From contig OY970178.1 of assembly GCA_963707915.1 (NCBI GenBank), positions 160,001 to 224,000 of the forward strand: DNA of 64,000 bases, in the 5' to 3' direction. The notes under the pieces are model-generated. The model made no database searches, was not told where the DNA came from, and saw only the letters and a list, made by a program, of their open reading frames with translations. This document shows, in pieces, positions 221 through 22,955 of this stretch (its first letter is position 1; each line of letters opens with the position of its first letter). The position numbers and the translations under genes are program-made. This stretch comes from Candidatus Eiseniibacteriota bacterium (lineage in GTDB: Bacteria; Eisenbacteria; RBG-16-71-46).

Positions 221-234
221 GCGGCCGGTCCCGG

Positions 235-651: not shown

Positions 652-710
652 GGGAATCCTCCTTCGACACGGCTCACGCGAGGAACCGCGTCGCGAATGC
701 GCGACGAACT

Positions 711-944: not shown

Positions 945-967
945 GGCAGCGTCTCCTTGAAGAGTCA

Positions 968-3596: not shown

Positions 3597-4011
3597 GTTG
3601 CGGCTCCTTCCGCTGAGCGCGGCGCGGGCGTGTCCGGGAGAAGGTGGGAATCCCGGCGGGAGGGAGACTGCAGAGCTGAGTAAGCGGCACGGCGAGGACT
3701 TCCCGAAGGCGCTTGCGATCCGCAAGGATGACTGGGTCCCGGTCGAGGGGGCCACGCAACAGCGCCAGCACCGCGCTGGCGTAATGGTCCGGCGCACCCG
3801 AGAGGCAGTATTCGACCCACTTCCCGTCGCGTCGATCCTCGACGAGTCCGGCCTGCTTGAGAATCGTCAGGTGCTTGGACACGGTGGAGAGGGCCAGGCG
3901 CAGGACTGCCTGGACCTGGCAAACGCAGAGCGGGCGTCCCTCCAGGAGCTTGAGGATCCGTGTGCGGGTAGGGTCGCCGGCCGCCTTGAGGGTGAGTTCG
4001 AGATCGCGCAT
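3589..4011 (-). CDS. arsR: ArsR/SmtB family repressor
   Basis: KAAGDPTRTRIL...PLCVCQV (CVC As(III) site)...STVSKHLTILKQAGLV. First gene of the operon. Confidence 0.92.
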   Translation of the reverse strand: MRDLELTLKAAGDPTRTRILKLLEGRPLCVCQVQAVLRLALSTVSKHLTILKQAGLVEDRRDGKWVEYCLSGAPDHYASAVLALLRGPLDRDPVILADRKRLREVLAVPLTQLCSLPPAGIPTFSRTRPRRAQRKEPQHA

Positions 4012-4028
4012 GGAGTGTCTCCCTTCGT

Positions 4029-4075
4029 CACTTCGTCACATGGCGAAGTGTAGGAGGGACGCCGGGGCTCGTCAA
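4029..4075 (-). promoter_or_regulatory. Sigma70 promoter of the ars operon with overlapping ArsR-type operator
   Basis: Minus strand TTGACG(4075-4070)-N17-TACACT(4052-4047). Inverted repeat CACTTCGTCA-CA-TGGCGAAGTG (4029-4050, one mismatch) overlaps -10/+1. Confidence 0.8.
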
Positions 4076-4176
4076 GTCACCTCCTCCGATCGCTGTGAAT
4101 GCGTGGGCGGTCATGGTCGGCCGTCAGATCCGCAACCAACCCAGCGGTCGGGCTCAGCTTGTGGCATAGTAAAGCC

Positions 4177-4470
4177 ATGCGTCAGGCTCATTTCGAGTCC
4201 GCGGAAGTGCGGGGCTACATCGGCGCCCGGGGCGGGGTTCTGTGCATTTCGCTCCAGGCGATCATGCACGGCTGATGAAGGGTCGACCTCGGCCCGGTCG
4301 GGTCGCTCGAGATTCCTGAGGACGCGGCCGCCTACGAGGGTCTCGAGGGGGACGGCCTTGCGGTCCACGTGCACCGTGACGTGCTCGCCAAGCTCAAGGA
4401 TCCCGCGCGACTCAGCTTTGCCTTCGGAAAGTTCGGGCGCTGCTGGCTTCGTCTCGGAGCCGATCCCTAG
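4177..4470 (+). CDS. Putative selenoprotein with tandem Sec-Sec (CC/Se-motif, HesB-like), 97 aa
   Basis: MRQAHFESAEVRGYIGARGGVLCISLQAIMHG[TGA][TGA]RVDLGPVGSLEIPEDAAAYEGLEGDGLAVHVHRDV...RLGADP-TAG. The frame stays open with coding-like codon usage after the TGAs, and a SECIS-like hairpin follows directly. Confidence 0.7.
4279..4317 (+). promoter_or_regulatory. Candidate bacterial SECIS element
   Basis: Stacked stems AGGG/TCCT, TCGA/TCGA and CGGCCC/GGGTCG close a GGTC loop (4296-4299) that starts 17 nt after the second TGA. Confidence 0.55.
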
Positions 4471-4518
4471 GCGTTTCCGTGGACTTGGGCACCCCATGAA
4501 CTGCAGCATCCGAGCCGC

Positions 4519-4542
4519 ACTTGAGCCCTAACTTGAGCCCTA
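4519..4542 (+). repeat. Perfect 12-bp tandem direct repeat ACTTGAGCCCTA x2
   Basis: Copies at 4519-4530 and 4531-4542, ending 3 bp before a -35 box. Confidence 0.85.
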
Positions 4543-4545
4543 ACC

Positions 4546-4574
4546 TTGACGCAGGTGAGTGGGCGAACTAGAAT
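4546..4574 (+). promoter_or_regulatory. Sigma70 promoter, probably producing a leaderless arsR2 mRNA
   Basis: TTGACG-N17-TAGAAT. An in-frame GTG lies 7 nt downstream at 4582 with no RBS. Confidence 0.75.
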
Positions 4575-4581
4575 CGCCTAC

Positions 4582-4947
4582 GTGCATACAGTCGCGAGGT
4601 CCTCACCGGCACAGGTCGAGCGGATGTTTCGCGCGTTCGCCGACCGCACACGGCTCCGGCTCCTTCATCTCCTGAAGGACGGAGAGCTTTGCGTTAGCGA
4701 CATCGTGACGATCCTCGAGGTGCCGCAAGCGCGCGTGTCCCGCCACCTGGGCTACCTGCACCGGGCTGGACTCGTTGACGTCCGCAAGCAGGGGCTCTGG
4801 GCCTTTTACCGGCTCCGCCCGCCAGAATCTCCCTTCCATCAGCGTCTCGTCGGCTGCTTGGGACACTGCTTTGCCGGGGTGCCGGGACTGGCCACTGATT
4901 CCCGCCGCGCCGCCAGGATCAAACGCTCCGGTGGGTGCTGCCCGTGA
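4582..4947 (+). CDS. ArsR/SmtB family regulator with C-terminal CC motif
   Basis: FRAFADRTRLRLLHLL..GELCVSDIV..VSRHLGYLHRAGLV. Ends GCLGHCF...SGGCCP. Confidence 0.9.
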   Translation: MHTVARSSPAQVERMFRAFADRTRLRLLHLLKDGELCVSDIVTILEVPQARVSRHLGYLHRAGLVDVRKQGLWAFYRLRPPESPFHQRLVGCLGHCFAGVPGLATDSRRAARIKRSGGCCP

Positions 4948-5055
4948 TGACCCACCCCGAGGGAGGCCTCCTGACCATGAAGGCGGCTGCGATGGGCCCG
5001 CCTTGGACTTCGTCTTCGTCGAGAGCTGGGACATCCACCACCTGAGGGGGTAACG

Positions 5056-5814
5056 ATGAATCGCCGTGGCCTCGGACTCGCCTTGCTGTTGCTCTGCACC
5101 CTGGGACCGGTCGCCTCGGCCTCGACGCAGCGTGACGTGGAGTCCGCCGCCAAGCAGCAGAAGATCGCCTTCATCCTGGTTTACGATCAGAGCGCGACCG
5201 GTATGGCTCAGGCACGGGACGTCATCCGCCAGACCATGAAGCAGGTCAGCGGGTCGGTCCTGCTGGAACTGGACCGTTCCGCCCCGGCGAACGCCGAGTA
5301 CGTGGCGAAGCTGCGGCTGGCCGGCGCACCCGTGCCGCTGATCCTCGTCGCGGCGCGAAACGGCGTCCTGGTGGCGGGAGTGCTGGCTGCCCAGGCGACG
5401 CCGGCGGTCCTGCTGAGCGCGGTTCCTTCGCCCAAGCAGGCGGAGATCATGCAGGCTCTCCAGGGCGGCAAGCCCGTGTTCATCACCGTGAGCCGAAAGG
5501 GCATGCCCCGCGAGCCCAAGGCGGTCGCGGCTTGCGTCGCGGCATGCGGCAAGATGGGCGACAAGTCCGCGCTGGTCCGCATCGACATGGCGGATCCCCG
5601 GGAAGCGGCCTTCCTCTCCCAACTCAAGATCGACTCCGCCGCGAAGGAGCCGGTGACGCTGGTGGTCAATGCGCAGGGCCAGGTCACAGGCTCGTACACG
5701 GAAGTCCAGGATGTGGCCAATCTCGTCCAGGCGGCGACCAGGGTCGTGAGCGGCTGCGGCCCCGGTGCTTGCGGTCCGGGTGCGGCGAGTTCCTGCGCTC
5801 CGGCCAAGAAGTAG
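5056..5814 (+). CDS. Exported hypothetical protein with two thioredoxin-like halves and a Cys-rich tail
   Basis: Signal peptide, internal duplication (KIAFILVY / KPVFITVS; PLILVAARNG / PVTLVVNAQG), tail SGCGPGACGPGAASSCAPAKK, GAGGGG RBS. Confidence 0.75.
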   Translation: MNRRGLGLALLLLCTLGPVASASTQRDVESAAKQQKIAFILVYDQSATGMAQARDVIRQTMKQVSGSVLLELDRSAPANAEYVAKLRLAGAPVPLILVAARNGVLVAGVLAAQATPAVLLSAVPSPKQAEIMQALQGGKPVFITVSRKGMPREPKAVAACVAACGKMGDKSALVRIDMADPREAAFLSQLKIDSAAKEPVTLVVNAQGQVTGSYTEVQDVANLVQAATRVVSGCGPGACGPGAASSCAPAKK

Positions 5815-5826
5815 CGGCGGGTCGGC

Positions 5827-7050
5827 ATGAACCTCCGCACCATCCTCTGGAAGGAACTGTGGCTGCGGAAGTCCCGGATGATCTCCGGGCTTCTCGCGAT
5901 CACCCTTGGAATCGCCGTCATCGTCGCCATCCAGTCGGTCGCTTCCGTCTCGGAGCGGGCCGTCAAGATCAAGCTCGACAACCTCGGCGCGAACATCCTG
6001 GTGCTGCCACAGGCCGCTTCCGTGGATGACTACTATACCGCGGACATCGACGCCCCGACCTTCCCCGAGGACTACGTGGAGCGACTCGCCACCTCCATGC
6101 TCCCGGGCGTCGACAACCTGTCCCCCAAGCTCACGCGACGGGTCAGGGTCGGCAGCGTTCCGGTCATCCTCACGGGCATCCTGCCGGCCAACGAGCTTGC
6201 CTCGAAACCGATCTGGCAGAGCGCCGGTCTGGCCGGCGCGGCGCTCGCCGCAGCCTGCGGCCCGAGCCCCGAGGTCGCGAAGAAGGGCCCCTCCTATGCC
6301 GACGAGCGCCTCCAGCGCAAGGCGATCACCGCGCTCGCACCGACGGAGGTGCTGCTCGGGAGCGTCGCCGCCCAGCGCCTGAACCTTCGGGCAGGCGGCA
6401 GGGTCACCATCGAGGGACGCGAGTTCTCGGCCGCGCGCATCCTGCCGGAGACGGGCACGATCGACGACGATCGCATCTACGCGCACCTGCACGTGGTGCA
6501 GGGCCTGCTCGGGACCGGAGCGCAGGTCAGCGCCATCGAGATCATGGGCTGCTGCTCCGCGATCTCCGACGGGCTCCTCGGGAAACTGCGGAACATCCTG
6601 CCGGACACCCGGATCACGACCATCGGCCAGATCGTGAACACCCAGATCGAGACCAATCGCTTGTTGGCGAAGGTCTCCCTGATCTTGCTGGTGATCATCG
6701 TGCTCGTGGGCGCGATCTCGATCGCGAACTACATGTGGGCCAACGTCGAGGAGCGCAGGCGCGAGATCGGCACGCTCCTCACGCTCGGCGCGACCCGCGG
6801 GAGCATCTACCGTCTGTTCTTCGCGAAGTCGATCGTCCTGGGTGTCCTGGGCGGGATCGGCGGCTACGCTGTCGGGACGATCGCTGCCCTGATCCTCGGT
6901 CCGCAGCTCGCAGGATTGTCCGTCCAGCCGATCCCGATCTACCTTGCCTGGTCCGTCCTGATCTCCCTGGTGATCGCCGTGCTCGGGAGCTGGTACCCGA
7001 CCTACCGCGCCACTCGCCTCGATCCGGCCTCGATCCTCCAGGAGTCCTAG
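5827..7050 (+). CDS. ABC transporter permease, MacB/FtsX family
   Basis: TM1, LGANILVLP, large periplasmic loop containing IMGCCS, NVEERRREIGTLLTLGA, C-terminal RATRLDP. Confidence 0.92.
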   Translation: MNLRTILWKELWLRKSRMISGLLAITLGIAVIVAIQSVASVSERAVKIKLDNLGANILVLPQAASVDDYYTADIDAPTFPEDYVERLATSMLPGVDNLSPKLTRRVRVGSVPVILTGILPANELASKPIWQSAGLAGAALAAACGPSPEVAKKGPSYADERLQRKAITALAPTEVLLGSVAAQRLNLRAGGRVTIEGREFSAARILPETGTIDDDRIYAHLHVVQGLLGTGAQVSAIEIMGCCSAISDGLLGKLRNILPDTRITTIGQIVNTQIETNRLLAKVSLILLVIIVLVGAISIANYMWANVEERRREIGTLLTLGATRGSIYRLFFAKSIVLGVLGGIGGYAVGTIAALILGPQLAGLSVQPIPIYLAWSVLISLVIAVLGSWYPTYRATRLDPASILQES

Positions 7051-7052
7051 CG

Positions 7053-7742
7053 ATGTTCACGCTTCAGGGCATCACGAAGTCCTATGCCAGCCGACGCGGG
7101 GTCGTCCACGCCCTCTGGGACATCTCCCTCAGCATCGAACGGGGGAGTTTCACTGCGGTCACGGGTCCGTCGGGCTCCGGGAAGACCACGCTGCTCCTGA
7201 CACTCGGCGGTCTGATCCGGCCAACCTCCGGACAGGTGGTGTTCGAGGGGACCGACCTCGGTAGTCTCGACGAGAAGCGTCTCGCCGGGTACCGCAATCG
7301 GAGCGTGGGGTTCGTCCTGCAGAGCTTCAACTTGATTCCCTACCTGAGCGCCTACGAGAACGTCATGGTCCCGGCGTCACTCGGTGCGTCCACCAACGGC
7401 GACCAGACGCAGCGGGCGAGGTCGCTTCTGGATCGCCTGGGAATGGCGGACCGGATGGACCATCTGCCTCGTGAGCTTTCCGTCGGACAGCAGCAGCGTG
7501 TCGCCATCGCGCGCGCGTTGAGCAACGACCCCAAGGTCATCCTGGCCGATGAGCCGACCGGCAATCTCGATCCAGCCCTGGCCGCAGAGATCCTGGCCAT
7601 CCTCCGGGATCTGAACGAGAAGGAGGGGCGGACGGTGGTGCTGGTCACGCACAGTCCCGAGGCGGCGAAGGCGGGGCGCCAGCACATACGACTGACGGCG
7701 GGGCAATGCACTGCAGAAGACCCGGCGCTCGCGGTGCTCTGA
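7053..7742 (+). CDS. ABC transporter ATP-binding protein (LolD/MacB type)
   Basis: [24 protein letters not shown] and [11 protein letters not shown]. Confidence 0.95.
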
Positions 7743-7888
7743 TTCCGCGTGGGCGCCTGGCCGGCTTGAGGCTGGCGCCAAGCCGGGAAGCCTCCTGACC
7801 CGCTGGTGATCGGATCCCGGCCTCCTGAGGCCTCCCCTGCGCCGCTCCGTCAACCCAGGCGCCGCATCGAGGGTCACCCAGCCGTTCC

Positions 7889-8053
7889 GCCCTGGGCGGC
7901 TGTCAGCGCGCTCAACCTGTGGGCTTCAATTGCCCCTTACACGCCCGGCGAATCAACCGCTACTTGCCAGCTGTCCCCCCGGACCTTGTGGTAGCCTCGC
8001 GCTAGTTTCCAATTGCCCTTGACGCGCCGGTTCGAATCCGGGTGCCGCCTCCA
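7889..8053 (+). repeat. Repeat copy 1: conserved arm plus tRNA-Cys 3' end (att-like)
   Basis: Ends CCGGTTCGAATCCGGGTGCCGCCTCCA (8027-8053). The upstream ~140 bp aligns by eye with copies 2 and 3. Confidence 0.85.
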
Positions 8054-8161
8054 GTTCTCCGAGTTGTGGCCCTCTCTCCGACCCTGGTTCAGGCCAGGCC
8101 ACCTGGAGCGAGTCCAACCGGAGCCGCCGACGCCAATCTCGCTGCAGTTGGCCGCGCGATG

Positions 8162-8200
8162 CCCCGCTTGTGGTTGGCGCCGCAAGCGGGGGTTTCGTCT
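8162..8200 (+). terminator. Intrinsic terminator-like hairpin
   Basis: CCCCGCTTGTGG-ttggcg-CCGCAAGCGGGG followed by GTTTCGTCT. Confidence 0.5.
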
Positions 8201-8349
8201 TGGGGGCAGGAGGGGACTGAAGAGGACCTTGACCCGGCGATCCATCGGTGAACAACGGGTTCACCCTGGGAAGATGACGGAACCCGTCAAAGCGTGGGCA
8301 GCTCGTCCACGCGGAACCGTCATCGGGTTCACCCGAGCTGTCTGCTGGG

Positions 8350-9108
8350 TCAATGACCCTTGGTCGCCGCACGATGCCGGAAGAGCACAAGGCACGCGAC
8401 GATGAAGGTCAGCAGTGCGGCGGACGCAGAGTAGCGGCTCAGCGCCAACCCGCCCGCGCGGACCGGCTTGTCGAGGAAGTCGCCGACCACGGCGCCCAAT
8501 GGACGCGTCAGGACGAAGGCCGCCCAGAAGAGCTTGGTGCGCGAGATCTTGGTCCAATAGTACGCTGCGACGACCAGCGCGAGCAGCACGCCGAATACGG
8601 CGGCCGCGCCAAGATAACCCAGCCCGGCGGTATCGGCCGTCCAGTCGCCCAGCGCGGTGCCCAGGGTCTGGGAAAGCATGATGGTCACCCAGTAGAACAT
8701 CTCGGTCTTGGCCGAAATCACCGTATCCACCGACACCGACCCCATGGTGCGATACCACGTGACGAGCGACGCGATCAGCAACGCGAAGAGCAGCGATGTG
8801 CCACCTGCGTAGCCGATGTGGAGCGAGCGGTCGGCAAAGTCGGCCAGCGTGGTGCCGACGGTCGTCGTGGCGACGATCGTCGTCCAGTACAAGTACGGAT
8901 GGAAGCGCTTGGCGGCGATCTGCGCGCCCACCGCGAGCAGGAAGATCAAGGCGAAGATGCCGGTGGCGACAAGGTAGCCAAGATTCATCGACATCGACAC
9001 CGCGTCTCCGCCGGTCTCTCCCAGCGTCGTGGCGGCGATCTTGACGACCCAGAAGAGCAGCGTGATCTCCGGAACCTTGCTCACGCGCTTCTCAATCGCG
9101 GTGCTCAC
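8350..9108 (-). CDS. COG4705/DUF347-type membrane protein
   Basis: SKVPEITLLFWVVKIAATTLGETGGD with repeated T.GT..AD / TLGTALGD / TRPLGA..GD helices. GAGGAG RBS before GTG. Confidence 0.88.
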   Translation of the reverse strand: MSTAIEKRVSKVPEITLLFWVVKIAATTLGETGGDAVSMSMNLGYLVATGIFALIFLLAVGAQIAAKRFHPYLYWTTIVATTTVGTTLADFADRSLHIGYAGGTSLLFALLIASLVTWYRTMGSVSVDTVISAKTEMFYWVTIMLSQTLGTALGDWTADTAGLGYLGAAAVFGVLLALVVAAYYWTKISRTKLFWAAFVLTRPLGAVVGDFLDKPVRAGGLALSRYSASAALLTFIVACLVLFRHRAATKGH

Positions 9109-9239
9109 GGAGTCTCCTCTTCGCGAAGGGGTGCTGGACAGACTCCGGTGCGACCAGCGCACACCCACCCCGGCCGCATTCCGACCACGCGCGGCGCCCG
9201 CCACGCGTGGCAAACGGTGTGCTCATGAATGGGCTTTTG

Positions 9240-9518
9240 CTAGCGCACGGCCAGCTCTGCTTCGTCTACGCACGCCAGCAGCGCGTTCGCCGCATGCACG
9301 TCGCCGGGGCGTCCGTCCGTGACGGCCTCGATCACCGGCTCAAGCTTCTCGCTGAACGCGAGGGCGCTTGTCGAACAGGTGCGCTGAGCAGCGGAGGCTC
9401 CGGAGACACCACCAGAGGCCGATCCCAGCGCGGCCAGACAGGCCACCACGACCAGTGGGGCGGTGGTCGCATCGCGGCACGCAGATCGCGGTCGCAAAGT
9501 GCGGGGCGCGGCGCTCAT
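9240..9518 (-). CDS. Short hypothetical ORF or gene remnant
   Basis: GAGGAG RBS and a signal-like hydrophobic stretch. No recognised family. Confidence 0.3.
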   Translation of the reverse strand: MSAAPRTLRPRSACRDATTAPLVVVACLAALGSASGGVSGASAAQRTCSTSALAFSEKLEPVIEAVTDGRPGDVHAANALLACVDEAELAVR

Positions 9519-9795
9519 TCATTGCTCCTCAGGACTCGACGGACGGCCCGGCGTGCACAGCCACGGCATGCTCAGTGTCGTAGCTGACACGAAGCGAGCA
9601 GTTGTGTCAATGCGCAGCATGAAGGCGGCCTCCCGGTGCGCCGACCGCTTCAGCCCCGCCGATCCGGGGTGGCCGGCGATCTTCTCTGCGCTGCCCGCGG
9701 GTCGAGCTGCGGGACGTGGCCCACCCTCGACGGTGAATCGGGCGACCCGGATGTTTCGGTCAAGCAACCTGCCTCGACCGCTATCCGGTCGCTTG

Positions 9796-9958
9796 GCCCA
9801 GGGCGGCCATACGCGTTCGATGCGCGGACTTCAACGGCCCCTTTCACGCCCGGCGGATCAGGGGCCACCCGCCGACCTCCCCATCGGACCTTGTGGGGGG
9901 CTCGGGTAGGTTTCCGATCGCCCTTGACGCGCCGGTTCGAATCCGGGTACCGCCTCCA
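9796..9958 (+). repeat. Repeat copy 2: conserved arm plus tRNA-Cys 3' end (att-like)
   Basis: Ends CCGGTTCGAATCCGGGTACCGCCTCCA (9932-9958). Shares CACGCCCGGCG, CGGACCTTGTGG and GCCCTTGACGCG with copy 1. Confidence 0.85.
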
Positions 9959-10454
9959 GATTCGCTCCCGGCCCGCCGCTGCGACGACCTCTGATTCCGG
10001 TAATCGCCCGGGCATGCGATGTCGGGCCTGGGAGTCGGCGTTCCCACGCCCTGTCCCCGACGGGTTCCGTGGTGGGTCCGCCACCGCCTCCGGGCGACGC
10101 CGGCAGCGGGAACCACCGCTGCCGTACCGCCTTCCCGGAGTCTGCCCACTCCACGTGTGCGATGGCTCGTTCTCCTTGCGATGGTGCGAACCCTCGCAGA
10201 CGATGCGATCGGCGCCGGCGACGTCTCCGTCGCCCGCCTTTCGGGTGCCGCCGTTCCGAGGGGCCCGGTGGCTCGCAGGGCCGGGTGTCAGAGCGGCGAC
10301 AACCCCAATGTGCCCCGGCAAGCGAAGATCACGAGCACTTGAGTTCGGTATGTGGTTCGACGCAGGGGAGCCCGCGGGGAGTCGTCATGGTGGGAGCCGC
10401 CGATCCACCGCGCCCATCTGCGCTGGTCGGCTCGCGCCGGTTCCGCCGCCAGGC

Positions 10455-13400
10455 TCACCGTCGCGAGCGCGACGCTCGCTTGCCGGCCCCGGCGGGGACC
10501 GATGCGCCCAACACCACGCGCACGCGGTGCACCGCGCCATCGTCGGCCAGCGGGATCGCGCCGGCGTCGATCACCGCGCCATCCATCAGCGCCTCCGCGA
10601 CGCCGCGATTGCAGTGCCCGGGATTCTCCACCGTGATCTCGTAGAGGCTCCGCCCATATCGCCAGCGCACGACGAAGCCGTCCCACGTCGCGGGTATGCA
10701 GGGCGCGATCGCCAGGTGCTGACCCCGGCGCCTGAGCCCGAGGATCGACTCGAGACCGAGCCGGTACATCCACGCCGCCGAGCCGGTGTACCAGGTCCAG
10801 CCGCCGCGGCCGATGTGCGATGGGTGCGTGTAGACGTCGGCCGCCACCACGAAGGGTTCCGCCTTGTAGCGCTCGACTTCGGCGCGTGAGCGGGTGTGGT
10901 TGATCGGATTCAGCATGTGGAACAGTTCGACCGCCTCGTCGCCGTTGCCGAGATGCGCGAACGCCATCACCGTCCAGAGCGCGGCATGGGTGTACTGGCC
11001 GCCGTTCTCCCGCACGCCCGGCAGGTAGCCCTTGATGTAGCCGGGTTCGAGCGCGGACTGGTCGAAGGGCGGGGCGAGCAGCTGGATCACGCCCGCGTCG
11101 CGCCGTACCAGTTGCATCCGCACGGCGTCCATGGCGCGCTCGGCCCGCTGCGGCGCAGCGGCGCCGGAGAGCACGGCCCAGCTCTGCGAGATCGAATCGA
11201 TCCGGCACTCCGGGAGCTGTGCGGAGCCCAGCGGGGTGCCGTCGTCGAAGTAGGCGCGGCGATACCAGTCGCCGTCCCACGCCTGCTCGAGCACCGTGCC
11301 GAGCCGCTCGCGTTCCCCACGCCACCGGGCGGCGCGTTCAAGATCGCCGCGCACTTCGACGATCGTTGCGAAGTCGCCCAGGATCTTCGAGAGGAACCAG
11401 CCGAGCCACACGCTCTCGCCGCGGCCCTGGTGTCCGACGCGGTTCATGCCGTCGTTCCAGTCGCCCGTGCCGATCAGCGGCAGGCCGTGCGAGCCGACGG
11501 TCAGGCCGCGCTCGATGGCGCGCACGCAGTGCTCGTAGAGCGTGCCGCTCAGCCCCGACACCCCGGGCTGCCCGTAGCTCTCCAGCTCCGTCCGGCCGGA
11601 GCGCGGGGGCTTCGAGGAAGGCCACGGGCACGTCGAGCACCGCCTGATCGCCGGTGCAACGCAGGTAGTGGGCGACGGCATAGGGAAGCCACAGCAGGTC
11701 GTCGGAGCAACGGCTCCGCACGCCGCGACCCGAGGGCTCGTGCCACCAGTGCTGCACGTCACCCTCGGCGAACTGATGCGCGGCGGCGCGCAGCAGGTGC
11801 TGGCGGAACAGGTCCGGCCGCGCGAACGCGAGCGCCATCACGTCCTGCAGCTGGTCGCGGAAGCCGTAGGCGCCGCCGGGCTGGAAGAAGCCGGTGCGGC
11901 CCCACAGGCGCGAGCTCACCGTCTGGTAGAGCAGCCAGCGATTCATGATCAGGTCGAACGAGTCGTCCGGGGTCTCGACCTGCACGGCGCCGAGCAGGTC
12001 GTCCCAGCGCTGTTCGACCTCTTCCAGCGCCGCGCGCGCAGCCGCGACGCTGGCGAAGCGGCGCGCCAGTTCCAGCGCGTGCTCGCGGTCGTTCCCCTGC
12101 CCGAGCAGCAGGACCACTTCGCGCGTCTCGCCAGGCTCGAGATCCACGCTGAGCTGCAGCGCCGCGCACGGGTCGAGGCCCGCGCCGAAGTGATGCGACA
12201 GCGCCTCGCGGGCCAGCGCCGCGGGGCGGCGCAGCGAGCCGTTCCGGCCGAGGAACTCGATCCGGTCGCCGGTCGCGGACCGGGGACGCTGGCTTGCGTG
12301 CGCGAATGCGACGCGCCCGGCGAAGTCCGGGTTGTACGGGTTGTGCGCCAGGACCGCGCCGGTCTTCGAGTCCTGTTCGGTGATCACGAAGCGCTGCTCG
12401 CCGGCGCGCGGCGGGCACAGCGCCCACTCGTTGTAGGCGAAGACGCTGAGACGCCGTGGCCGGGCCGTGTGATTGCTGAGCGTGAGCAGCGAGAGCCGGA
12501 TCGGCTCCTGGGCGTGAACGAAGACCGCGAGCTCGCAGACGACGCCGTGGTCGCCGTGACGGAAGCGGGTCACGCCGGCACCGTGGCGGATCACCCAGCG
12601 GCCACCGTCGGGCGGCCGCGGCAGCGGGCCCGGCGTGGCGCCCCAGGTCTCGCCGTCCTCCTCGTCGCGCAGGTAGAGGGCCTCGCCGCTGAACTCGCTC
12701 ACCGGGTCGTTGCCGAACGGGGTCAGGCGGTTCTCGCGGCTGTTCCCGGCCCAGGTCCAGGCGGCGCCGGTGGCCCCGATCACCGTGCCGAAGCGCTCGT
12801 TCGCGATCACGTTCACCCAGGGCAGCGGCGTGTCCTCGTCGCCGTTCAGCACGATCGCGTATTCGCGCCCGCCGGCGGTGAAGCCCCCGAGGTCGTTGGT
12901 GTGATCGAGCGGCGGCGCCTCGACCTCCGGACCACGGTCCCGCACGATCGCTGCCCCAGGCCTCGGGTGCGTGGTCAGTGCGCGAGGCCAGCGGGGCTCG
13001 GGGAAGGGCAGCTCGAGCTGGTCGGCGAGCCCGCCGCGCTCACCGCTGAGCAGCGCGTGCGCGGCCGCCAGCAGCAGCCTGCGCTCGGCTTCAGGCATGC
13101 CGTCGCCACGCAGCAGGAACACGCCGCCGGGGCGGTGCTTCCAGGCCGCCCAGGGGCCGCTCTCGAGCAGGCCCTGGAGTTGCTCGTGCATCTCGTCGAG
13201 GTAGCTGGCCGGATGCTCGTTCAGGATCACGACCTCGGCGTCGAGGCCCATGAGCCGCCAGTACTCCTGCGCGCGCAGCACCTGGCGCACCAGCGACAGG
13301 TCGTTCTCCTCGACCACCCGCACGATCAGGATGGGCAGGTCGCCGGAGACGCCGTGGGACCAGAGACCGGGCTGGCCGAGCGTGTTGCCCTGCGAGGAAC

Positions 13401-16400
13401 TCGGGCGCGGCGCGCAGGGAAGCGTCGGTCCAGAGCACGTGCGAGGCGAGTTGCTCGTAGAGCCGGGCCTCGTCGGTCGAGATGCCGAGGTGGCGCAGCC
13501 GCATCTGCGTCTGGGTCGTGGCGAGGGCGAACGTGCGGGCAGCCGAAGCGGGATCGTCGTACTTCTCGGCAAGCGCGATCGCCGCGGCCCGGCTCGTCGC
13601 CACGCCGGTCGCGAAGGCGAGGCGCACCTGCCCGCCGGGGGCGATGCGCACGCGCCGCCGCAGGCTCAGGACCGGGTCCAGCACCGCACCGGTGGTGCCC
13701 GAGAGCGCCCGGCCATCGAGGGCGACGGGGTCCTCCGGCGTGCGTCCGCGGCCGAGAAAGCGCACGCGGTCGGTCTCCCACTCGATCGCGCCGTAGACGC
13801 CGCCCTCGGCGCTCAGCACGTGCACGGCCCAGAGCACGGGCTCGTCGGGCGAGCGTGGGCGGCGTCCGCAGAGCAGGGCCGAGCACTCGGGGCGGTACTC
13901 GGTCTCGAGGAACAGCTTCAGGAACGCCGGGTGGGCGAGGTCGTCGGCGGGCGGCGCGAGCACGATCTCGACCAGGCTCGTCACCTCGATCTCGCGCAGG
14001 CGGTCGCTGCGGTTGACCAGCGAGACGCGGCGCACCTCGACGTCGTCCTCGGGGGACACGGTGATCTCGAGGCGTGTCTCGATGCCATCGTCCGTGCGAT
14101 CGAACACGGCCTCGTCGGCGCGGAAGTTCACGAGGTAGCGTTCGGGTTCGCAGCAGACGGGCTGGTAGGCGGCCGACCAGAGCCGGCCGCTGCGCACGTC
14201 GCGCAGGTAGATGGACTGGCTGCCCGTGTCGCTGGCCGGGTCGTCGCGCCGGCGCGTGACCGCACGGCCGCGCCAGCTGCTGGTGCCGCCGCCGGCGTTG
14301 GTGACGACGGTCGTGTACTGGCCGTTCGAGAGGAAGTGGGCGCTCGGGAAGCGGGTGTGCGGAGAGCGGAAGCGCCGCGGCGAGACGTCCAGGGGCAGCG
14401 CCTCCGCCCGCGTCGACTCGGCTGGGCGCGGCTGGGTGACGGGCACGAAGCGCGGCACGCGCTCCTGCAGCAGCGGCTCCGTGGCCTGCACGCGCGGATC
14501 GGAGTGGAAGCGCCGCACCATCGGTGCTTCGAGCACGGCGTTCGCGAGCGCGACCAGGCTCATGCCCTGGTGGTGGGCGAAGAACGCGCGCACGATGTGG
14601 ACCCGCGCCGGGTCGGGTGCAGGCTCGCCGTTGGCGCCGAAGGTCCTGCGCGGCGTGTAGTCGAGCGCTTCGTCGAAGCCGAAGCGCCCCGCCGCGCCTT
14701 CGCGAGCCAGGCGGCGGAAGTTCGCGGCGGCGCCCGCCGGATCGACCATGGCCGCCAGCGCGGTGGCGTAGGGCGCGATCACCAGGTCCTCGGCGAGCCC
14801 GCGCTTGAGTCCCAGGCCGGGGACGCCGAAAGCCTTGTACTGATGGTCGCCGTGCGGGTCCACCACGTTGAACGCCGACTCCGAGATCCCCCACGGCACG
14901 CCGTGGCGCCGGCCGTAGAGGATCTGCGCGCGCACCACCGCCTGGCAGGTGTTCTCAAGCAGCGTCTCGGGGTGGCTGCGCAGCACCAGCAGCGGCATCA
15001 GGTATTCGAACATCGAGCCGCTCCACGACACCAGGGTGGCGCGGCCCTCGACGCTCACCAGGGCGCGCGAGAGCCGGAACCAGTGCTCCTGCGGCACCTC
15101 GCCCCGGGCGATGGCGATGAAGCTGGCGAGCCGGGACTCCGACGCCAGCAGATCGTAGTACGAGGTGTCGAGGCGGCCCGGCCCCTCGGCGTCGGCGAGC
15201 CGGAAGCCGATCGAGAAGATCCCGCCCTGCCGGTCGTAGAGGAACTTCCAGTCCATGGCGTCGGCGAAGGCATCGCAGCGGACGGGCGAGGTCGCGAAGG
15301 CGGGCGCGCAGGCTGTCGGGCGGTGCGGTGGTCGTCGTCCACCGGCGTAGCGCGTCGAACAGCGCCCGGTCCCAGTCGCCGATCTCGTCGGCCTCGGGCC
15401 CGGCAGAGGCCTCCGTCGCGACCCGCTTCAGCATCGCGCGCAGCACGTCGGTATCGGGTAGCGCGTCGCCGGGCTCGTCGCGCGCGGGCTCCGGGCCGGC
15501 CAGCGCCGCGCGCAGTGGGGCCAGTTCGCGGAAGGCGGCGCGGCAGTGCTGATGCAGGGGCGCCGCAGCATGCGAGCGGCGGGTCAGGGCCGCCAGCGAG
15601 TCCGCGAGCACGCCCGCGGCGTCGAGGGCGCCGGCCCACAGCCGGTGTGATTCCTCCGGCTCCTCGGCGATCTGGCGCAGCCCGGCCGCCAGCGCCATCA
15701 GGGCGCCCGCCAGGTTGCCGCTGTCCACGGTCGAGACGTAGCGCGGGGCGAGCGGCGCCAGGTTGATCGTGTCGTACCAGTTGAGCAGGTGGCCCTGGTA
15801 GCGCTCGAGTGACTCGATGGTGGTGAGCGTGTCGTCGATCCGGTCCGCGAGTTCATCGGTGCGCAGGTAGCCCAGGTCGTGCGCGGCAAGCGTGGAGAGC
15901 AGTCCCATGCCGACGTTGGTCGGGAGAGCTGCGGTGGGCGATGCGCAGTTCCGGCACCTCCTGGACGTTGTCGGGGGGCAGCCAGTGGTCCTGTCCGGTC
16001 ACGAAGCGCTCGAAGTAGTGCCAGGTCCGGCGTGCGACGCGACGCAACTGCCCGGCGTCCTCGGTGCTGAGCGCGAGGCGCCGGGCACGACGGGGCGGCT
16101 CAGCCACCAGGCGACCGCCGGCGAGGCCAGCCAGGCGGCGAGGAAGGGCAGCGCCACGGGCAGCGCGGTGGCGCGGAGCGGCAGCACGCCCAGCAGCACG
16201 ACCAGCGTGGCCGCGGGGCCCGCCCACATCTCGGCGACGAAGACCCGCAACCCCCGGCGCGAGAGCAGCCGGGCGGCGCGCACCGCACCCGCTGCTGCGG
16301 TCTCCCATTCGAGCAGGCGCCGCTGCGTGATCACCATCCGCACCAGGGTGAGGACGATGGCGTGGAGCATCTCGTAGGCGTGGTAGGCGAGGAGCGCGAT

Positions 16401-19083
16401 CTCGAGCAGCACCTGGACGAGCGCGGTCTCGAGCTCCGCCCAGACGTCGCGCAGGAACACGCCGAGCGGCTGCTGTGGGCGCGGGCCCCGTGCGAAGTGG
16501 ACGACCGGCGGGATCAGCGGGAAGCCGAGCACCGCCAGCGCTGCCGAGCGTCCAGCCGAGCGGCGAGCCAGGCAGCCAGGTCCACGCCGACACGAGCAGC
16601 GCCACCAGCGCGGGCGCCACGAGGCTGCGGCGCAGGTTGTCGAGGATCTTCCAGCGGCTGATGAGCGGCAGCCGGCTGCGCTCGAGTCCGCGGCGGGCCG
16701 GCACCAGCGGCAGCAGCCACAGCAGGATCTGCCAGTCGCCCCGCACCCAGCGATGCTGGCGCCGCGCGTGGGCGAGCACGCTCGAAGGGAAGTCGTCCAC
16801 CACTTCGACGTCCGAGACCAGCGCACAGCGCGCGTGCAGGCCCTCGAAGAGGTCGTGCGAGAGCATCGCGTTCTCCGGTACGCGTCCCTCGAGAGCGGCG
16901 GCGAAGGCCTCGACGTCGTAGAGCCCCTTGCCGGTGAAGCTGCCCTCGCCGAAGAGGTCCTGGTAGGTGTCGGACACCGCCGTGGTGTACGGGTCCACGC
17001 CGGTGTGCCCGGCGTAGACGCGCGCGAACAGCGATCCCGCGGCGCTTGCCAGGGTCACGCTGATCCGCGGCTGGAGGATGCCGTAGCCCTCGACGACCCG
17101 CCGGAGCTTGGGGTCAAGACGCGGGCGGTTGAGCGGATGCTCGATCACGCCGATCAGCTGCCGCGCCACATCGCGCGGCAGACGGGTGTCGCTGTCGAGC
17201 GTGATGCAGTAGCGGACCTGCGGCAGGATCGCGGGCTCGCCGATCTGCACGACGAAGCTGCTGTCCGTGGCGCCCCGCAGGAGCCGGTTGAACTCCTCGA
17301 TCTTGCCGCGCTTGCGCTCCCAGCCCATCCACACGTTCTCGCTCGCGTTCCAGCGGCGCGCGCGGTGGAAGAGGTAGAAGCGGTCCGCGGTCTCCGGGGC
17401 GTAGCGCGTGTTGAGGGCGTGGATCCCCGCGATCGCCGCCTCGAGTGCCTCGTTCTCGCCCGGGAGTTGCTCGGCGGCCGCGTCCGGGAAGTCGGTGAGC
17501 AGCGCGAAGTGGATGCGCGGATCCATGTTCCCGAGCGCATGCACCTCGAGGCGTTCGACCAGCGCCCGCGCGCCCTCGACCGACGAGAGGATGGTCGGCA
17601 CGATCACCATCGTGCGCGCCGTCTCGGGCACTCCGCCGCGCAGGTCGAGTCGCGGCAGGGGCCGCGGCCTGACGACGCGGTGGACGATGCGCTGCACGAG
17701 CGCCACCGCGAGATCGCTGGCGGGGATGAGCGCGACCAGGCCCACCCAGGCCCATATCCAGGGCGGCGCCTGCTGCGTCCGCGCGACGGCGACCGCGAGC
17801 GCGACCGCGAGCGCCGAGAGCAGGGAGACCGAGCCGAGGTAGAAGAGCGTGGCGTGGGCGAAGATCCCGCGCCTCAGGCGTTGCCTGAGGTTCGGGTGGT
17901 GAGCCACGTCGATCTCGAGGTCGCGCCGGCCGTGCCCGATCAGGTGGTGTCCGACGTGGGCGGCGCTGGAATCGAGCCCCCGTGTCTCCGCCGCCTGGCG
18001 CGCGCTCTCGATGGCGCGGAGGGCGACCCGCACCTGGGCCTCGCCGGTCGGCTCGGCCAGTTCCTCGACCGCGTGCCGGTAGCGGTCGCGGCTGGCGAAA
18101 TCCATGCGGACGTAGATCCCGGGCGGGTCGCGCTGCAGGACCTGCTCGATCCGGCTGACGCGCTCGACGTACCGGTTCCAGTCGAGTGTGGCACACAGCC
18201 GCAGGCTGGTGATGGAGTTCTCCATCGACACGTGATTCATCGCCTGGCGCTGGTGCTCGGCGCGCACCGCGTCCTCGACCGTGGCGCCGGCGGCGGCCAG
18301 GCGCTCCTCGAGTTGCTTCCGCAGTTCGGCGGTCCCGGCGCCGTACTCGCGCATGCGCTGGAGCAGCTGGTCCACGAACGCGACGTGGAAGACGGCGATC
18401 AGGGGCGGCAGGCGGCCGCCCGCGGGCGCACTCTCGAAGCCGCTGAAGTGGCGATCGGCCCCGAGGCGCCCGTCGCGACTCTCGAGCAGCTCCTCGGAGA
18501 GCCGGCGGACGTGCTCGATCAGCGCGAGCTTGAGCATGCTGGGCCACGCCCACAGCTCGCCGATGCTGAGCGGTGCCACGGTCTGGTAGGCGTTCATGAA
18601 GCGGACCAGCCGCTCGAGATCGAGCCGCGCGTCGCTGTAGCGCAGCAGTTCCACGGCCATCGCGTAGACACGCGCCGTGCCGGAGAGCTCGCGGGTGGCC
18701 AGCTTCGGGAGCTCGAGGTAGTAGCGCGTCGGCAGGTGGCGGCGGATCTCGCGGAGCTCGCCCTCCACCAGATGGAAGTTGTCGAGCAGCCATTCGGCGG
18801 CGGGCCCCACGCCTTCGCCACGCCGCACGTCACCGGCGAGCAGGCGATACGCCTGGCGGAGTACGCGGGCGTCGTCCGTGAGGCGGCGCAGCAGCCGGTG
18901 GGGGCCGCGCCGGGGGTGTCGCGAGAGCGTGAAGCCCGCGGCAAGGACCCGGGCACGCTCCTCCAGGCGCTCGACGCCGAGGAGTTCGCCGTGCAGCGGG
19001 CTGGAATCGAGACCGATCGGCCGCAGAGGGGAGCTGCCCGGCTGAGGAGCGGCGCGGAACGGCGTGAGGAGGGTGCTTGCCAA
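10455..19083 (-). pseudogene. Cyclic beta-1,2-glucan synthase-like (Cgs/NdvB; GT84 plus GH94) gene with six frameshifts (pseudogene or assembly indels)
   Basis: [104 protein letters not shown] and GWTWYTGSA occur in order across shifting frames. Start approximate (TTG). Confidence 0.9.
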
Positions 19084-19297
19084 CAGCCTGCCGTCCTTCC
19101 GGAATGGACCGCGGAGGGCCCGCAGCCCCGATCGAGGCCAACCCAGGCATAGTAGCAGGGAAGGGTTCGGCGAGCCCTTGAGGGATGGGGGGCTCGTCCC
19201 GGGCGAGGGGCCAGGCGCCTCAGCGGCCGCAACGCCACGATTCACCGGGCGATCCTGGGGCGATCCAGCCGCGCCGGCGAACCAGGTGTTGGATCGT

Positions 19298-19433
19298 CTG
19301 CGGTCTCCAACCGCTCCAGCACGCTGGGAGGGTCAAGGGCCATTCATCCACGCTTCCCGACGGGCCCGGTGGCAGGTCTTGACAACCTTCCGATTGCCGG
19401 CTGCACGCCGGTTCGAACCCGGGTGCCGCCTCC
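19298..19433 (+). repeat. Repeat copy 3 (most diverged): arm plus tRNA-Cys 3' end
   Basis: CCGGTTCGAACCCGGGTGCCGCCTCC (19408-19433), preceded by TTCCGATTGCC, GGTCAAGGGCCA and GCGGTCTCCAAC, which match blocks in copies 1 and 2. Confidence 0.75.
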
Positions 19434-19928
19434 GACACCAGCTGATCGGCACTGGCCAAAGGGACCTCGGCGCCCAGCACGCGGTGATGTCGGAGCCCTC
19501 GACCAAGGCGGCGGAGCTCCGCGTCCTTCGGTGGGCAGCAGCCCAGGCTCGGTCACACGGCCCGGCTTGCGCCCCACGTCCTGCCGGTCGCGGATTCGAA
19601 CAAGATTCGGGAGCCCGGGCGCGAGATCCTCCGGCTCAAGCTGCGCACCGAGCCCCGATCCGCTGCGCGCAGGCGCCCTCGGCGCCGGAACGACTCCCGC
19701 GCTGGACCGATGCGCCCGGTCCCGGCGCGCACCCTCGAAGGTGGCTTCGGTCCCACTGAAGCGTTCCGAACGGCATCGGGCCCATGCCGTGCGGTCCCAG
19801 TCCCGCTCCACGCTCGTCCCGCAGCGATGCCGCGGCCCGGTGCCGGTCGGGCGCGGTGATTGTGGGGTTCGGTTCCGCGCATCGCAGCATCCAAGTGTTC
19901 GGGCTCCGCGGTCGGAGAAGGAGGACGC

Positions 19929-21056
19929 GTGGAAGGACCGGTGGTGCTGCTTGCGCTCCTGCTCGCCGCGGCGGGCCCGGCTGCCCCGGCGACTCCGCGA
20001 CCCAGCGGGAGCCTGCGGGAGGCCGAGGCGCACTACGCCAGGGCCCTGAGCTGTTTCGAACGCAACACCCTCGACTACCGCCTCGAGGGCCGGCGCGAGC
20101 TCGAAGAGGCCGTGCGCCTGGCACCGGCGAACACGAACTACCGGCTGGCACTGGCGGATCTTCGGTTCGCCGGCGGCTCGTACGACGCTGCGCGCCGGGG
20201 CTACGAACGGGCGGCGGTCTCCGATTCCGCCGACGCCTACCTCGGCCTGGGCCTGCTGTGGCGGCACGACTGGCTGGCCTCGGGGGACCCGAGATCGCTC
20301 GACCGGGCCGAAGACGCGGTCATGACCGCCGCGTGGCTCATGCCGACCCGGACCGACGCCTGGCTCCTGCTCGTGCCGCTGTACCTCGCGCAGGGCCGGG
20401 GCACGGAGGCCGCGTCGTCCGCCTTCAGCGCCCTGGAATCCGACCCGGGACGCCTGGAGGCGCACCTGGCGGTCGCTGCGACGCTCTGCCACCTCGGTGT
20501 GGTGGGCGTGGGGGACAGCATCTTCCGGGCGGCCATCCCGCGCCTGCCGCCCGAGCTGCGCGCGGCTTACGAGCGCGCGGCGCCTATCCCTCCGGATGCC
20601 CAGCCGCTGGCTGTCGCGGCGCCCATCGCGGGCGCGAAACCGGGCGCAAGCGCGCTGGTGCTGGCCCCCGCGGACGAGTACCGGCTGTGGGCCTGGTCGC
20701 GGCTCACCGAGGAGGCGACCCTGATCCCCGCAGGGGTGAGTTCCGGCGCGGCGGCGGGCGCGGAGAGCCAGCGCTCGAACGGGGGACGCCGTTTCGGTTG
20801 GAGCCGCAGCGGCCCCGCTGTGGAACGCTCCCCGGATGCCCCTTGGGAGAGTCCCGACCTGGGCATCCGCATGGAGATCCAGGACCGATTGCTGGTCATG
20901 CGCCCCGCCCTGTCCGAATCACGGACCCGCGATGGCGCCGCCCCGCCGGCCGCCGCCCTGGCCGCCCTGTACGCCAGGATCCTGGCTGCCCTGGACGGAG
21001 CGCGGCCGGACGGAGGTCATCCGCCGGCCGGCGCTCCGAAGGGGAACTGGAAGTGA
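19929..21056 (+). CDS. Exported tetratricopeptide-repeat protein
   Basis: AAGGAGG RBS and GTG, signal peptide, TPR helices (LEEAVRLAPAN, AYLGLGLL, ALESDPGRLEAHLAVA). C-terminal half looks low-complexity. Confidence 0.65.
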   Translation: MEGPVVLLALLLAAAGPAAPATPRPSGSLREAEAHYARALSCFERNTLDYRLEGRRELEEAVRLAPANTNYRLALADLRFAGGSYDAARRGYERAAVSDSADAYLGLGLLWRHDWLASGDPRSLDRAEDAVMTAAWLMPTRTDAWLLLVPLYLAQGRGTEAASSAFSALESDPGRLEAHLAVAATLCHLGVVGVGDSIFRAAIPRLPPELRAAYERAAPIPPDAQPLAVAAPIAGAKPGASALVLAPADEYRLWAWSRLTEEATLIPAGVSSGAAAGAESQRSNGGRRFGWSRSGPAVERSPDAPWESPDLGIRMEIQDRLLVMRPALSESRTRDGAAPPAAALAALYARILAALDGARPDGGHPPAGAPKGNWK

Positions 21057-21841: not shown

Positions 21842-22828
21842 TCAGCGCCCGCGGCCCGGTTCCCTCGGAGCGGCACCCTGCGGTCCGGGCACTCCGGCGA
21901 GCCACCGCACGGTGTTCAGCACCAGTCGCGGATGGTGCGCGGCCTCGGGCGAGTTCATGCCCGCCGGCACGCGCTGTGGCCCGGCCAGCTGGGCGGTGAG
22001 CATCGCGGCCTCGCCGAACACCACGACGCGGCCGCGGCCGTGCGTGAGCGCCGCGGCGACCAGCATGCCGTCCGCGCGGACCTGGGGCGTGAGGGGCGAG
22101 AACTGCCAGGCAACCTCGGGCAGCAGCACGACCGAGCCGCGGCCCATCTCGAGCAACGTGTCCACCGGCATCGCGGTACGGAACGCTTGCCCGGTGAACA
22201 CCTTCACCGAGTCCACGCGCTCGGCGGGGCCGCGTCCGTCGGTGACCGGGTGGGCGTGGAGAAGCCCGTCGCCGCGGCGCAGCACGAATTCGCTCTGCCC
22301 GCTCGCGTCCTGCGCGAAGCCGTTCGACAGGAACACTCCGAACGCCGCCGCCAGTTCCTCCGCGGCGCCGCCGAACGGCATGTGATCGGCCACCAGCAGC
22401 AGCGAGCCGCCATCGCGCACCCAGGCTTCGACCACGCGCACCTCGGTGGGGTCGAAGGCCGACGCCACCGGCAGGTGCCAGGCCTCCACGTTGCGCTCTG
22501 CGAGTGCGTTCGAGATCACCAGCACGCGGGCGGAGTCGAGGGCGGCACGGGTGAACGGGCCGGCGTGGGGGCGCAGCACGAAGCCGTCGCGCGCGACCAG
22601 CCGCGCGAACGCGGCGAAGCGCCCGCCGAGCGTGTGAAAGTTGTGGTGGCCCTCGTCGATCAGCACGACCGGTCCCATGCCGGGCGCGAAGGCGGGGCGC
22701 GCGATCGGCGGCGCGAACGTGGTATCGGGCACCTGCTGGGCGAGCGCGCGGAGCGGGACCAGCAGGGCCAGCAGCGCGACGGCGAACCAGGGGAGACGGG
22801 AAGAGCGACGGGGCGGGAGCGCGAACAC
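21842..22828 (-). CDS. Exported DUF4350 / GATase-like fold protein
   Basis: Signal peptide, VLIDEGHHNFH, WVRDGGSLLLVADHMPFG and GRGRVVVFGEAAM. Confidence 0.75.
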   Translation of the reverse strand: MFALPPRRSSRLPWFAVALLALLVPLRALAQQVPDTTFAPPIARPAFAPGMGPVVLIDEGHHNFHTLGGRFAAFARLVARDGFVLRPHAGPFTRAALDSARVLVISNALAERNVEAWHLPVASAFDPTEVRVVEAWVRDGGSLLLVADHMPFGGAAEELAAAFGVFLSNGFAQDASGQSEFVLRRGDGLLHAHPVTDGRGPAERVDSVKVFTGQAFRTAMPVDTLLEMGRGSVVLLPEVAWQFSPLTPQVRADGMLVAAALTHGRGRVVVFGEAAMLTAQLAGPQRVPAGMNSPEAAHHPRLVLNTVRWLAGVPGPQGAAPREPGRGR

Positions 22829-22955
22829 GGGTTCCTCCGGGAGTGGGCGGCCAGGACTCGCATGCGGGGGGCCCCAGACTACGCCCGGAGAAGCGATCCG
22901 TTCCAGCGCCACGTGGTTCGCACGGCGTGGGCCGGCATCCGCCCCGCGGCGGCGG

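Follow-up and report, generated by a model that had tools for sequence, protein, structure and literature searches.

Cis-mobilizable elements (CIMEs) accrete in tandem at the 3′ end of a target gene (Pavlovic 2004, Bellanger 2011) and are described, in the summary that a review of integrative and mobilizable elements (IMEs) gives (PMC5704250), as decayed integrative and conjugative elements (ICEs) or IMEs lying beside a functional element. According to the account in PMC3146451, the ssrA islands of Dehalococcoides also stand in tandem, downstream of a single-copy tRNA-like gene in whose T-loop they insert; direct repeats of ~20 bp, copied from the 3′ end of that gene, separate them, and a conserved motif immediately precedes each repeat; 16 islands carry a module with a CcrB-like serine recombinase (DsiB), and 15 are without an integration module. 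The tycheposons of Prochlorococcus, as presented in a preprint (10.1101/2020.12.28.424599), bring their own tRNA-specific recombinase and usually a replication module. Here we analysed a 64,000-nt stretch (the window) of a Candidatus Eiseniibacteriota genome assembled as a single contig of 3.62 Mb (G000:C1:160001–224000; source and related genomes carry G-numbers, loci and contigs examined L-numbers), in which three copies of the end of tRNA-Cys (c1, c2 and c3) close three successive units (U1, U2 and U3) of unrelated genes. We think it probable, though well short of certain, that this array grew as CIME-like cassettes lacking integrases were added in tandem, by site-specific recombination, at the 3′ end of tRNA-Cys(GCA), with the recombinase supplied in trans.

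The tail pattern CCGGTTCGAAYCCGGGTRCCGCCTCC matched the window three times, always on the plus strand (8027–8052, 9932–9957 and 19408–19433), against zero matches expected by chance in 100 shuffles. The whole genome held four matches, all on the plus strand and all inside the 26 kb downstream of its sole tRNA-Cys, the fourth (153242–153267) being the 3′ end of the intact gene itself. This tRNA-Cys(GCA), at G000:C1:153194–153268 (ARAGORN; Rfam tRNA score 68.4 bits), lies 6.7 kb left of the window, where a preliminary description of the window had placed one unseen; the three same-orientation copies that it reported, ending at 8053, 9958 and 19433, are likewise borne out by the pattern search, the shuffles and the genome search. 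Fragment and gene share the stretch from the CCGG of the T-stem to the encoded CCA, which makes up the last 26–27 bases of the tRNA, and in c1 and c2 the next base is an A that completes ...CCTCCA. The core of c1 (8027–8053, plus strand) is identical to the gene, that of c2 (9932–9958, plus strand) has a single change (GGGTA for GGGTG), and that of c3 (19408–19433, plus strand) is decayed, with two changes, TTCGAAC in the T-loop and CCA to CCG, so that it reads ...CCTCCG. Rfam searches of the window (gathering score) and of the four copies (E up to 1) returned true tRNAs only. The locus thus has an intact target tRNA at one end and same-orientation 3′ repeats bounding its units, the arrangement of site-specific tandem tRNA islands. 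The preliminary description was right in its observation, and its interpretation is supported in part, as detailed below.

Each tail is preceded, on the same strand, by a longer conserved arm. The arm of c1 (7860–8026) consists of two tandem ~80-nt modules (nhmmer E 5.6e-29 and 0.028, and alignment), a degenerate upstream one at 7860–7945 and a downstream one starting at 7926, and contains the boxes TCCAATTGCC, GGCGAATCA..CCA and GTGGTAG. The arm of c2 (9832–9931; nhmmer E 6.5e-22) is 74% identical to it over the 100 nt before the core, and the arm of c3 (19237–19407; two modules, nhmmer E 2.2e-22 and 8.5e-5) is the most divergent of the three, at 49–51% identity to the other two. Upstream of the tail, c1 and c2 align over ~140 nt with a local score of 89, against 19.3 ± 2.6 in 200 shuffles, so that the similarity beyond the tRNA fragment first described for all three copies is strong for this pair; c3 taken alone scores no higher than shuffled sequence, whether against c1 (20 versus 18.9 ± 2.4) or c2 (26 versus 19.0 ± 2.8). 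We nevertheless count c3 as a member of the family because the family alignment places every conserved box of its arm in register and because this arm is 62–69% identical over 100 nt to arms of other genomes. Its standing as the most diverged copy, also noticed earlier, agrees with both its arm identities and its decayed tail.

The copies do separate unrelated cargo. U1, 14.8 kb long (G000:153269–168053), starts directly after the intact tRNA-Cys; Pfam searches identified ZnuA, ABC-3 and NikR in its cargo left of the window, and an ArsP permease, ACR3/SBF, a low-molecular-weight-phosphatase-type ArsC, two ArsR, FtsX/MacB and an ABC ATPase in the cargo within it (1–7859, examined by Pfam, tRNA searches and G+C content). 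U2, 1,905 bp in all with its cargo at 8054–9831 (Pfam; G+C 0.667), holds one DUF347 membrane-protein gene on the minus strand (8350–9213; PF03988, E 1.5e-60). U3, 9,475 bp in all, holds in its minus-strand cargo (9959–19236) one giant gene of the cyclic beta-1,2-glucan-synthase type with GT2 and GH94 domains (Pfam; tblastn with L050:10365–17240; blastn), and this unit recurs behind arms in L050 and L103 at 90–92% identity. G+C content is 0.67 in U1 and U2, 0.723 in U3 and 0.72–0.74 in the genome and flanks. Because its tail is decayed, its arm the most divergent and its G+C host-like (0.723 versus 0.67), the distal unit U3 looks oldest, in keeping with the order proposed in the preliminary description. 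The first 3.4 kb of U1 recurs in L092 at 76% identity, inverted and 3.4 kb from an arm, and is uninformative. The glucan-synthase-type gene itself (10455–19245, minus strand) is split into at least five frame segments here versus one open frame in the 90%-identical L050 copy (tblastn), and close to the frame switches, at 13391, 15925 and 16546, the contigs of relatives differ by indels of 1 nt; the split gene is either a pseudogene or a product of long-read indel errors.

Cargo in the relatives differs again, so that the variety seen in the window extends beyond it. Units elsewhere carry HigB/helix-turn-helix toxin–antitoxin pairs (three units), beta-lactamase-fold hydrolases, DUF2339 and CAAX-protease membrane proteins, a PRiA4_ORF3-like protein, an alpha/beta hydrolase together with an ABC ATPase and a GntR regulator, secreted beta-propellers, and chromate, energy-coupling factor (ECF) and ABC transporters, among others. 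Most units measure 1–4 kb, many fall between 0.3 and 4 kb, and the cargo is often multi-gene and may lie on either strand.

The arm is confined to this locus in the source genome: a profile search with the three arms found no copy outside the array in 3.62 Mb, the next match having an E of 0.95. Among 40 relatives searched with c1 by BLAST, six have an arm that reaches 20 nt or more beyond the tail on its upstream side, three of the same genus (G003, G004 and G005) and three from three other genera of the family (G015, G023 and G024); in most of the remainder the tRNA itself was the only match. A junction pattern (arm box, 11 free bases and tail, with TCCAAT and the initial 17 nt of the tail obligatory) found 9 loci in 185,579 species genomes, 7 titled Candidatus Eisenbacteria and 2 titled "uncultured bacterium", as well as 54 loci with 56 matches in metagenomes and none in viral contigs. 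The arm collection comprises 64 copies, 58 of them distinct, which always adjoin the same tRNA tail, and on these searches the family appears restricted to Candidatus Eisenbacteria. In other genomes and contigs the arm always has the orientation of tRNA-Cys and, where the tRNA is visible, lies downstream of it. A short non-coding repeat with a tRNA-derived end also recalls a tRNA-tailed, non-autonomous dispersed repeat, similar to miniature inverted-repeat transposable elements (MITEs) or short interspersed elements (SINEs), which the preliminary description had named as its alternative. Such a repeat would be dispersed at many unrelated sites, however, and the constant position and orientation relative to tRNA-Cys also speak against it; with all arm copies of the 3.62-Mb genome lying inside the array, we reject this explanation here and find it barely credible.

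From left to right the arm consensus consists of TCCAATTGCCCCCT.CACGCC, then GGGCGAATCAAGGGCTAYCCA, which is a decayed tRNA tail, then a ~58-nt spacer holding GGTGGTAGG and a second TCCAATTGCCCCCTGCACG, and finally the live tail. Spacer and tail form a module of ~80 nt, of which an arm contains one to four head-to-tail copies, with the last tail alone intact; the number of modules varies among close relatives, L064 having one more than L087. The boxes GGTAGG, GGCGAATCA and CCA are 80–99% conserved although they lie outside the search pattern, while the conservation of the TCCAAT box and of the first 17 nt of the tail is partly ascertainment, the pattern having required them. In the L048 copy an anticodon loop and variable region are still recognisable before the decayed tail, and the spacer consensus is collinear with tRNA-Cys positions 1–48 via GGCGG, GTGGTA.GG, TCTSCAA and CCC. 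The global alignment of spacer and tRNA-Cys scores 30, against 20.0 ± 3.6, a score equalled by 30 of 2000 shuffles and, when the G000 variant of the tRNA is used, by 198 of 2000. The view that the arm is made of one to four head-to-tail, strongly decayed tRNA-Cys copies is thus weakly supported.

The same alignment likens the arm to the leader and 5′ part of the tRNA itself, and the best-kept boxes, TTGTGG/GGTGG and TCCAAT, are spaced 16–17 nt apart in the manner of −35 and −10 elements, both of which would fit an arm and tail that act as an expressed tRNA-like small RNA or a promoter module instead of a recombination site. An RNAalifold consensus of the 58 distinct copies, computed on both strands with RNA energy parameters, nevertheless contains no conserved fold except the T-arm hairpin, and even at E up to 1 the arm matches nothing in Rfam. 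Downstream of c1 and c2 the genes lie on the opposite strand, and neither kind of function would explain why relatives differ by the presence or absence of whole units. We consider such a role very improbable.

Comparison of closely related loci showed that unit content varies while the flanks are kept, as in tandem islands. G004, a congener, shares with G000 the genes upstream of the tRNA, but behind the tRNA it has a single unrelated unit of 1.76 kb and one arm, versus 26 kb in G000. Directly after that arm comes a homologue of the window gene at 21842–23188 (minus strand), a gene without assigned function that lies just past the array in G000 and was traced by comparison with relatives and contigs. 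Its homologue also follows the terminal, decayed copy in G005 and, in the metagenome contigs L087 and L064, forms an arm-closed cassette directly behind the tRNA; what appears to be host flank in G000 is therefore a cassette elsewhere. L087 shares 3,411 of 3,412 aligned bases (99.97%) with a second metagenome contig, L054, the sole mismatch being a G/A in the T-loop of the inner tail, and L087 alone has an extra 1,373-bp unit, the homologue just mentioned, between the tRNA and the unit that both share. This extra unit is flanked on both sides by ...GCCGCCTCCAG, and the first bases of the next unit are identical in both contigs. Another cassette occurs in three contexts at 98–99% identity, each time starting with the same bases immediately behind ...GCCGCCTCCA, its left neighbour being the intact tRNA (L051), a different arm (L068) or its own arm (L094), the last representing either a tandem or a circular junction. 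As a separate observation, the gene just upstream of tRNA-Cys in the congener G001 (L016 = G001:C139, 3–1142) is a homologue, at 76% amino-acid identity, of window 24104–25297, which in G000 lies downstream of the whole array; the tRNA-Cys neighbourhood has therefore been rearranged within the genus.

Exchange of this kind might do without a dedicated recombinase if the tandem pseudo-tRNA arms and tails served as portable homology for RecA-type shuffling after DNA uptake. All units are flanked by 100–190 nt of arm (50–90% identity) plus an identical 27-nt tail, the arm of c1 is 90% identical to the arm that closes different cargo in L059, and the extra module of L064 relative to L087 would also fit such shuffling. 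Both informative cases, however, have their breakpoints precisely where the 27-nt tail ends, the left homology available to a first-position insertion is the tail only, and the origin of arm-tailed units would be left unexplained. We regard shuffling by homology alone as improbable.

We suggest instead that the units are small integrative cassettes without an integrase of their own, in each of which the cargo is followed by a conserved arm and finally by the 27-nt tRNA tail, and that arm and tail together would form the attachment site, attP when the unit is free and attR when it is integrated. The crossover would lie within the tail, most likely in the T-loop or 3′ of it, and a newcomer could land at the intact tRNA or at any tail copy, pushing older units outward, which would make c3 the oldest. 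The recombinase, of the tyrosine or serine type, would act in trans from a transient helper element or from another place in the chromosome, with the arm boxes as its putative binding sites, and the units would behave like CIMEs or satellites. This proposal builds on the anatomy of the array, an arm that is confined to the locus and conserved across the family, variable cargo, breakpoints at the tail, and arrays with no recombinase in or near them; the lower G+C of U1 and U2 relative to the genome also fits it. Trans-moved cassettes are the most economical explanation because no recombinase was found, the site is conserved across genera and near-identical units occur in different contexts. The stacked copies downstream of the intact gene, with their varying cargo, support reading them as attR-like ends of serially stacked units, and in this respect the serial capture at tRNA-Cys proposed in the preliminary description is supported; for the single recombinase acting in trans that it also proposed there is no supporting gene, either beside tRNA-Cys or in the array.

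Several findings weigh against trans-supplied recombination. No recombinase was found beside tRNA-Cys or in the arrays examined, in line with the earlier remark that none was visible in the complete units. The Pfam families PF00589 and PF00239 have no match in the array; across the whole genome PF00589 matches six places, the nearest at 457 kb and none within 270 kb of the array, and PF00239 matches once, at G000:3354744 (3.35 Mb). Among 256 open reading frames (ORFs) in or near arrays that were scanned with Pfam (42 + 15 + 33 + 85 + 81, the last 81 at a strict cut-off of 1e-10), there were three DDE insertion-sequence transposases and one tyrosine integrase (L074:1131–2213), and apart from that integrase, which belongs to a 5′-replacing element, no site-specific recombinase. 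A home-made hidden Markov model (HMM) of tyrosine recombinases, run on all stop-to-stop ORFs of at least 80 amino acids in loci L036–L103, matched the L074 gene alone, although the model, built from 5 sequences, may miss distant integrases. In ten further genomes there was no PF00589 match on the arm-bearing contig where that contig is known (G003, G004, G005, G015 and G024). G004 (93% complete, 5 contigs) has two PF00589 matches only, which from their position and score we take to be an Xer-like pair, yet it keeps an arm-closed unit, so that at least some units may be fixed relics; the same genome shows that a dedicated resident integrase is needless for an array merely to persist.

The comparative evidence also has points that count on this side. 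Homologous recombination between the 27-nt repeats that deleted a unit would equally yield the L087/L054 difference, which may be a gain or a loss. The L054 sequence upstream of the tRNA, all of which is positions 1–14, differs from L087 342–355; the two contigs may come from different strains and carry near-identical cassettes in different backgrounds, 14 nt being too short for certainty. The L094 junction could be a tandem duplicate, and because its other end enters an internal repeat a circle is not confirmable there. All comparison material is metagenome assembly, and conservation 3′ of the tail is limited to a weak A(C/T)TCCC, whereas attP sites of the lambda type usually have more. Among the public sequencing runs listed for this sequence there was no RNA run, and the best DNA run contained only 0.24 of the query words; all runs were in the form of Logan contigs. 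Contigs from public runs over window 6000–21000 were short, with joints that have sides of 20–37 nt and none at unit boundaries, and are uninformative on excision.

Two enzymes were considered and rejected as the agent of the array. The L074 integrase is unsuitable as a platform enzyme: it sits upstream of the tRNA, next to a Replic_Relax gene that precedes it, and the element of its homologue is 5′-replacing. That homologue, in G030, ends a 4.5-kb element (L104, G030:C119, 412–4990) that displaced the 5′ half of tRNA-Cys at the anticodon loop and supplies the tRNA with a new promoter and 5′ half. Members of this integrase family stand directly upstream of, and co-oriented with, tRNA genes, in G000 at 3385433–3386413 before tRNA-Ser(cga) at 3386450 and at 3316608–3316916 before tRNA-Ser(tga) at 3316922; L074-type elements are 5′-replacing and unrelated to the 3′ array. 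The large serine recombinase of G000 was set aside because its site shares only GTTCGAA with the tRNA-Cys tail, and a phmmer search of the loci with it was negative. We also discarded the idea that the tail is dif/Xer-like, since by eye the arms flanking the T-loop do not form an inverted repeat. Clustering of all units by single linkage over-merged them and was left unused, and a full-text literature search for Eisenbacteria with integrase returned no paper.

Loss of integrases is the usual fate of tRNA islands, and the units could accordingly be the remains of ordinary integrase-bearing islands whose integrases were deleted later, with nothing moving now. The tycheposon preprint (10.1101/2020.12.28.424599) reports, for its islands, scattered fragmented integrases and partial tRNAs, and G000 itself has, at tRNA-Glu(ttc), an integrase remnant (457069–457572) beside the tRNA and a displaced tail at 445972. 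The decaying tail of c3 and a G004 genome without any non-Xer PF00589 match would suit such a history as well. Across ~65 loci, however, no unit carries an integration module, functional or decayed, and no integrase or fragment of one was seen in any unit examined, many of which span only 0.3–4 kb. The arm boxes have been kept across four genera, and near-identical cassettes (98–99.97%) occur in different contexts. We therefore think it unlikely that these units are only remains.

Of the described systems, these three come closest. The cassettes proposed here resemble CIMEs as reviewed in PMC5704250 in being units with att sites derived from the 3′ end of a target gene, which stand in tandem, lack integration and transfer genes and would be movable with or through a helper integrase. 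Arm and tail are present at every unit end and integration and transfer genes are absent, as in a CIME. Unlike CIMEs, no Eisenbacteria unit has a decayed or functional integration or transfer module and in no locus did we see a gene remnant of an ICE or IME from which a CIME would have decayed, or an adjacent functional element that would mobilise it; the units are moreover mostly 1–4 kb and their arm is a tandem pseudo-tRNA-like module. With the Dehalococcoides ssrA islands, as PMC3146451 describes them, they share tandem units separated by 3′-end repeats, a motif before each repeat and recombinase-less units, but no Eisenbacteria unit has a serine recombinase and no CcrB-like module was found next to attL. 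Islands of the tycheposon type, in the preprint's account, also have specific tRNA landing pads, newcomers that displace older elements outward, partial tRNAs in between and niche-adaptive cargo; the Eisenbacteria units differ in carrying neither a recombinase nor a replication module.

The preliminary description had called the array integron-like. Chromosomal integrons and clusters of attC sites lacking integron integrases (CALIN) are similarly one-sided arrays of recombinase-free cassettes, each ending in a conserved recombination site. Here, in contrast, there is no IntI and no attI, PF00589 having no match closer to the array than 270 kb; the site consists of a tRNA tail with its arm, for which the RNAalifold consensus (RNA energy parameters) shows the T-arm hairpin as the only conserved fold and nothing that resembles attC; and the cargo is often multi-gene and on either strand. 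The integron analogy is thus functional only, and the label does not stand. What sets the array apart from the known systems is the combination of no integration module in ~65 loci, small units and a tandem pseudo-tRNA-like arm. A bolder version, which we offer tentatively and consider doubtful at present, is that Eisenbacteria have a dedicated tRNA-Cys-anchored cassette system whose site is a tandem pseudo-tRNA-Cys module plus a live 27-nt tail and whose recombinase, chromosomal or transient, is never cassette-borne and acts in trans.

Two further tRNA genes of the same genome have displaced 3′ parts. Downstream of tRNA-Leu(taa) (window 52592–52676), a copy running from the anticodon loop to the 3′ end lies 2.7 kb away at 55405–55428, and with no PF00589 match near either, the region looks like another small integrase-less unit. 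Outside the window, in the region G000:C1:3155380–3162068, tRNA-Lys(ctt) is followed by two displaced 3′ parts of ~45 nt (3159855 and 3155380), which start from the anticodon loop. Judged by eye, the arms upstream of the two parts hardly differ over ~200 nt and contain GATGCCCG repeats; no integrase was found there, and this is a second integrase-free array with a different arm family. Certain genes also recur near arms or at the distal edges of arrays: a DEAD-box helicase gene (L042:250–1101, L056:2701–3879, L072:3136–4218 and L075:5863–7044) and HDOD-domain genes (L052:9215–10153, L075:362–1642, L097:4832–5770 and window 22956–23978). These may be conserved neighbours or old, fixed cassettes.

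The array shows how an uncultivated phylum of soil and sediment acquires and swaps accessory genes, the functions concerned including metal and arsenic resistance, toxin–antitoxin pairs, hydrolases, transporters and envelope functions. Together, arm and tail provide a well-defined site model of ~105 nt with which further arrays, and the missing recombinase, can be sought. If the bolder version is true, integrase-free, tRNA-anchored cassette arrays would be a general way of capturing genes, akin to integrons and so far without a formal description, and if the recombinase is truly separate from the cassettes, Eisenbacteria would have a second, tRNA-based solution to the problem that integrons solve.

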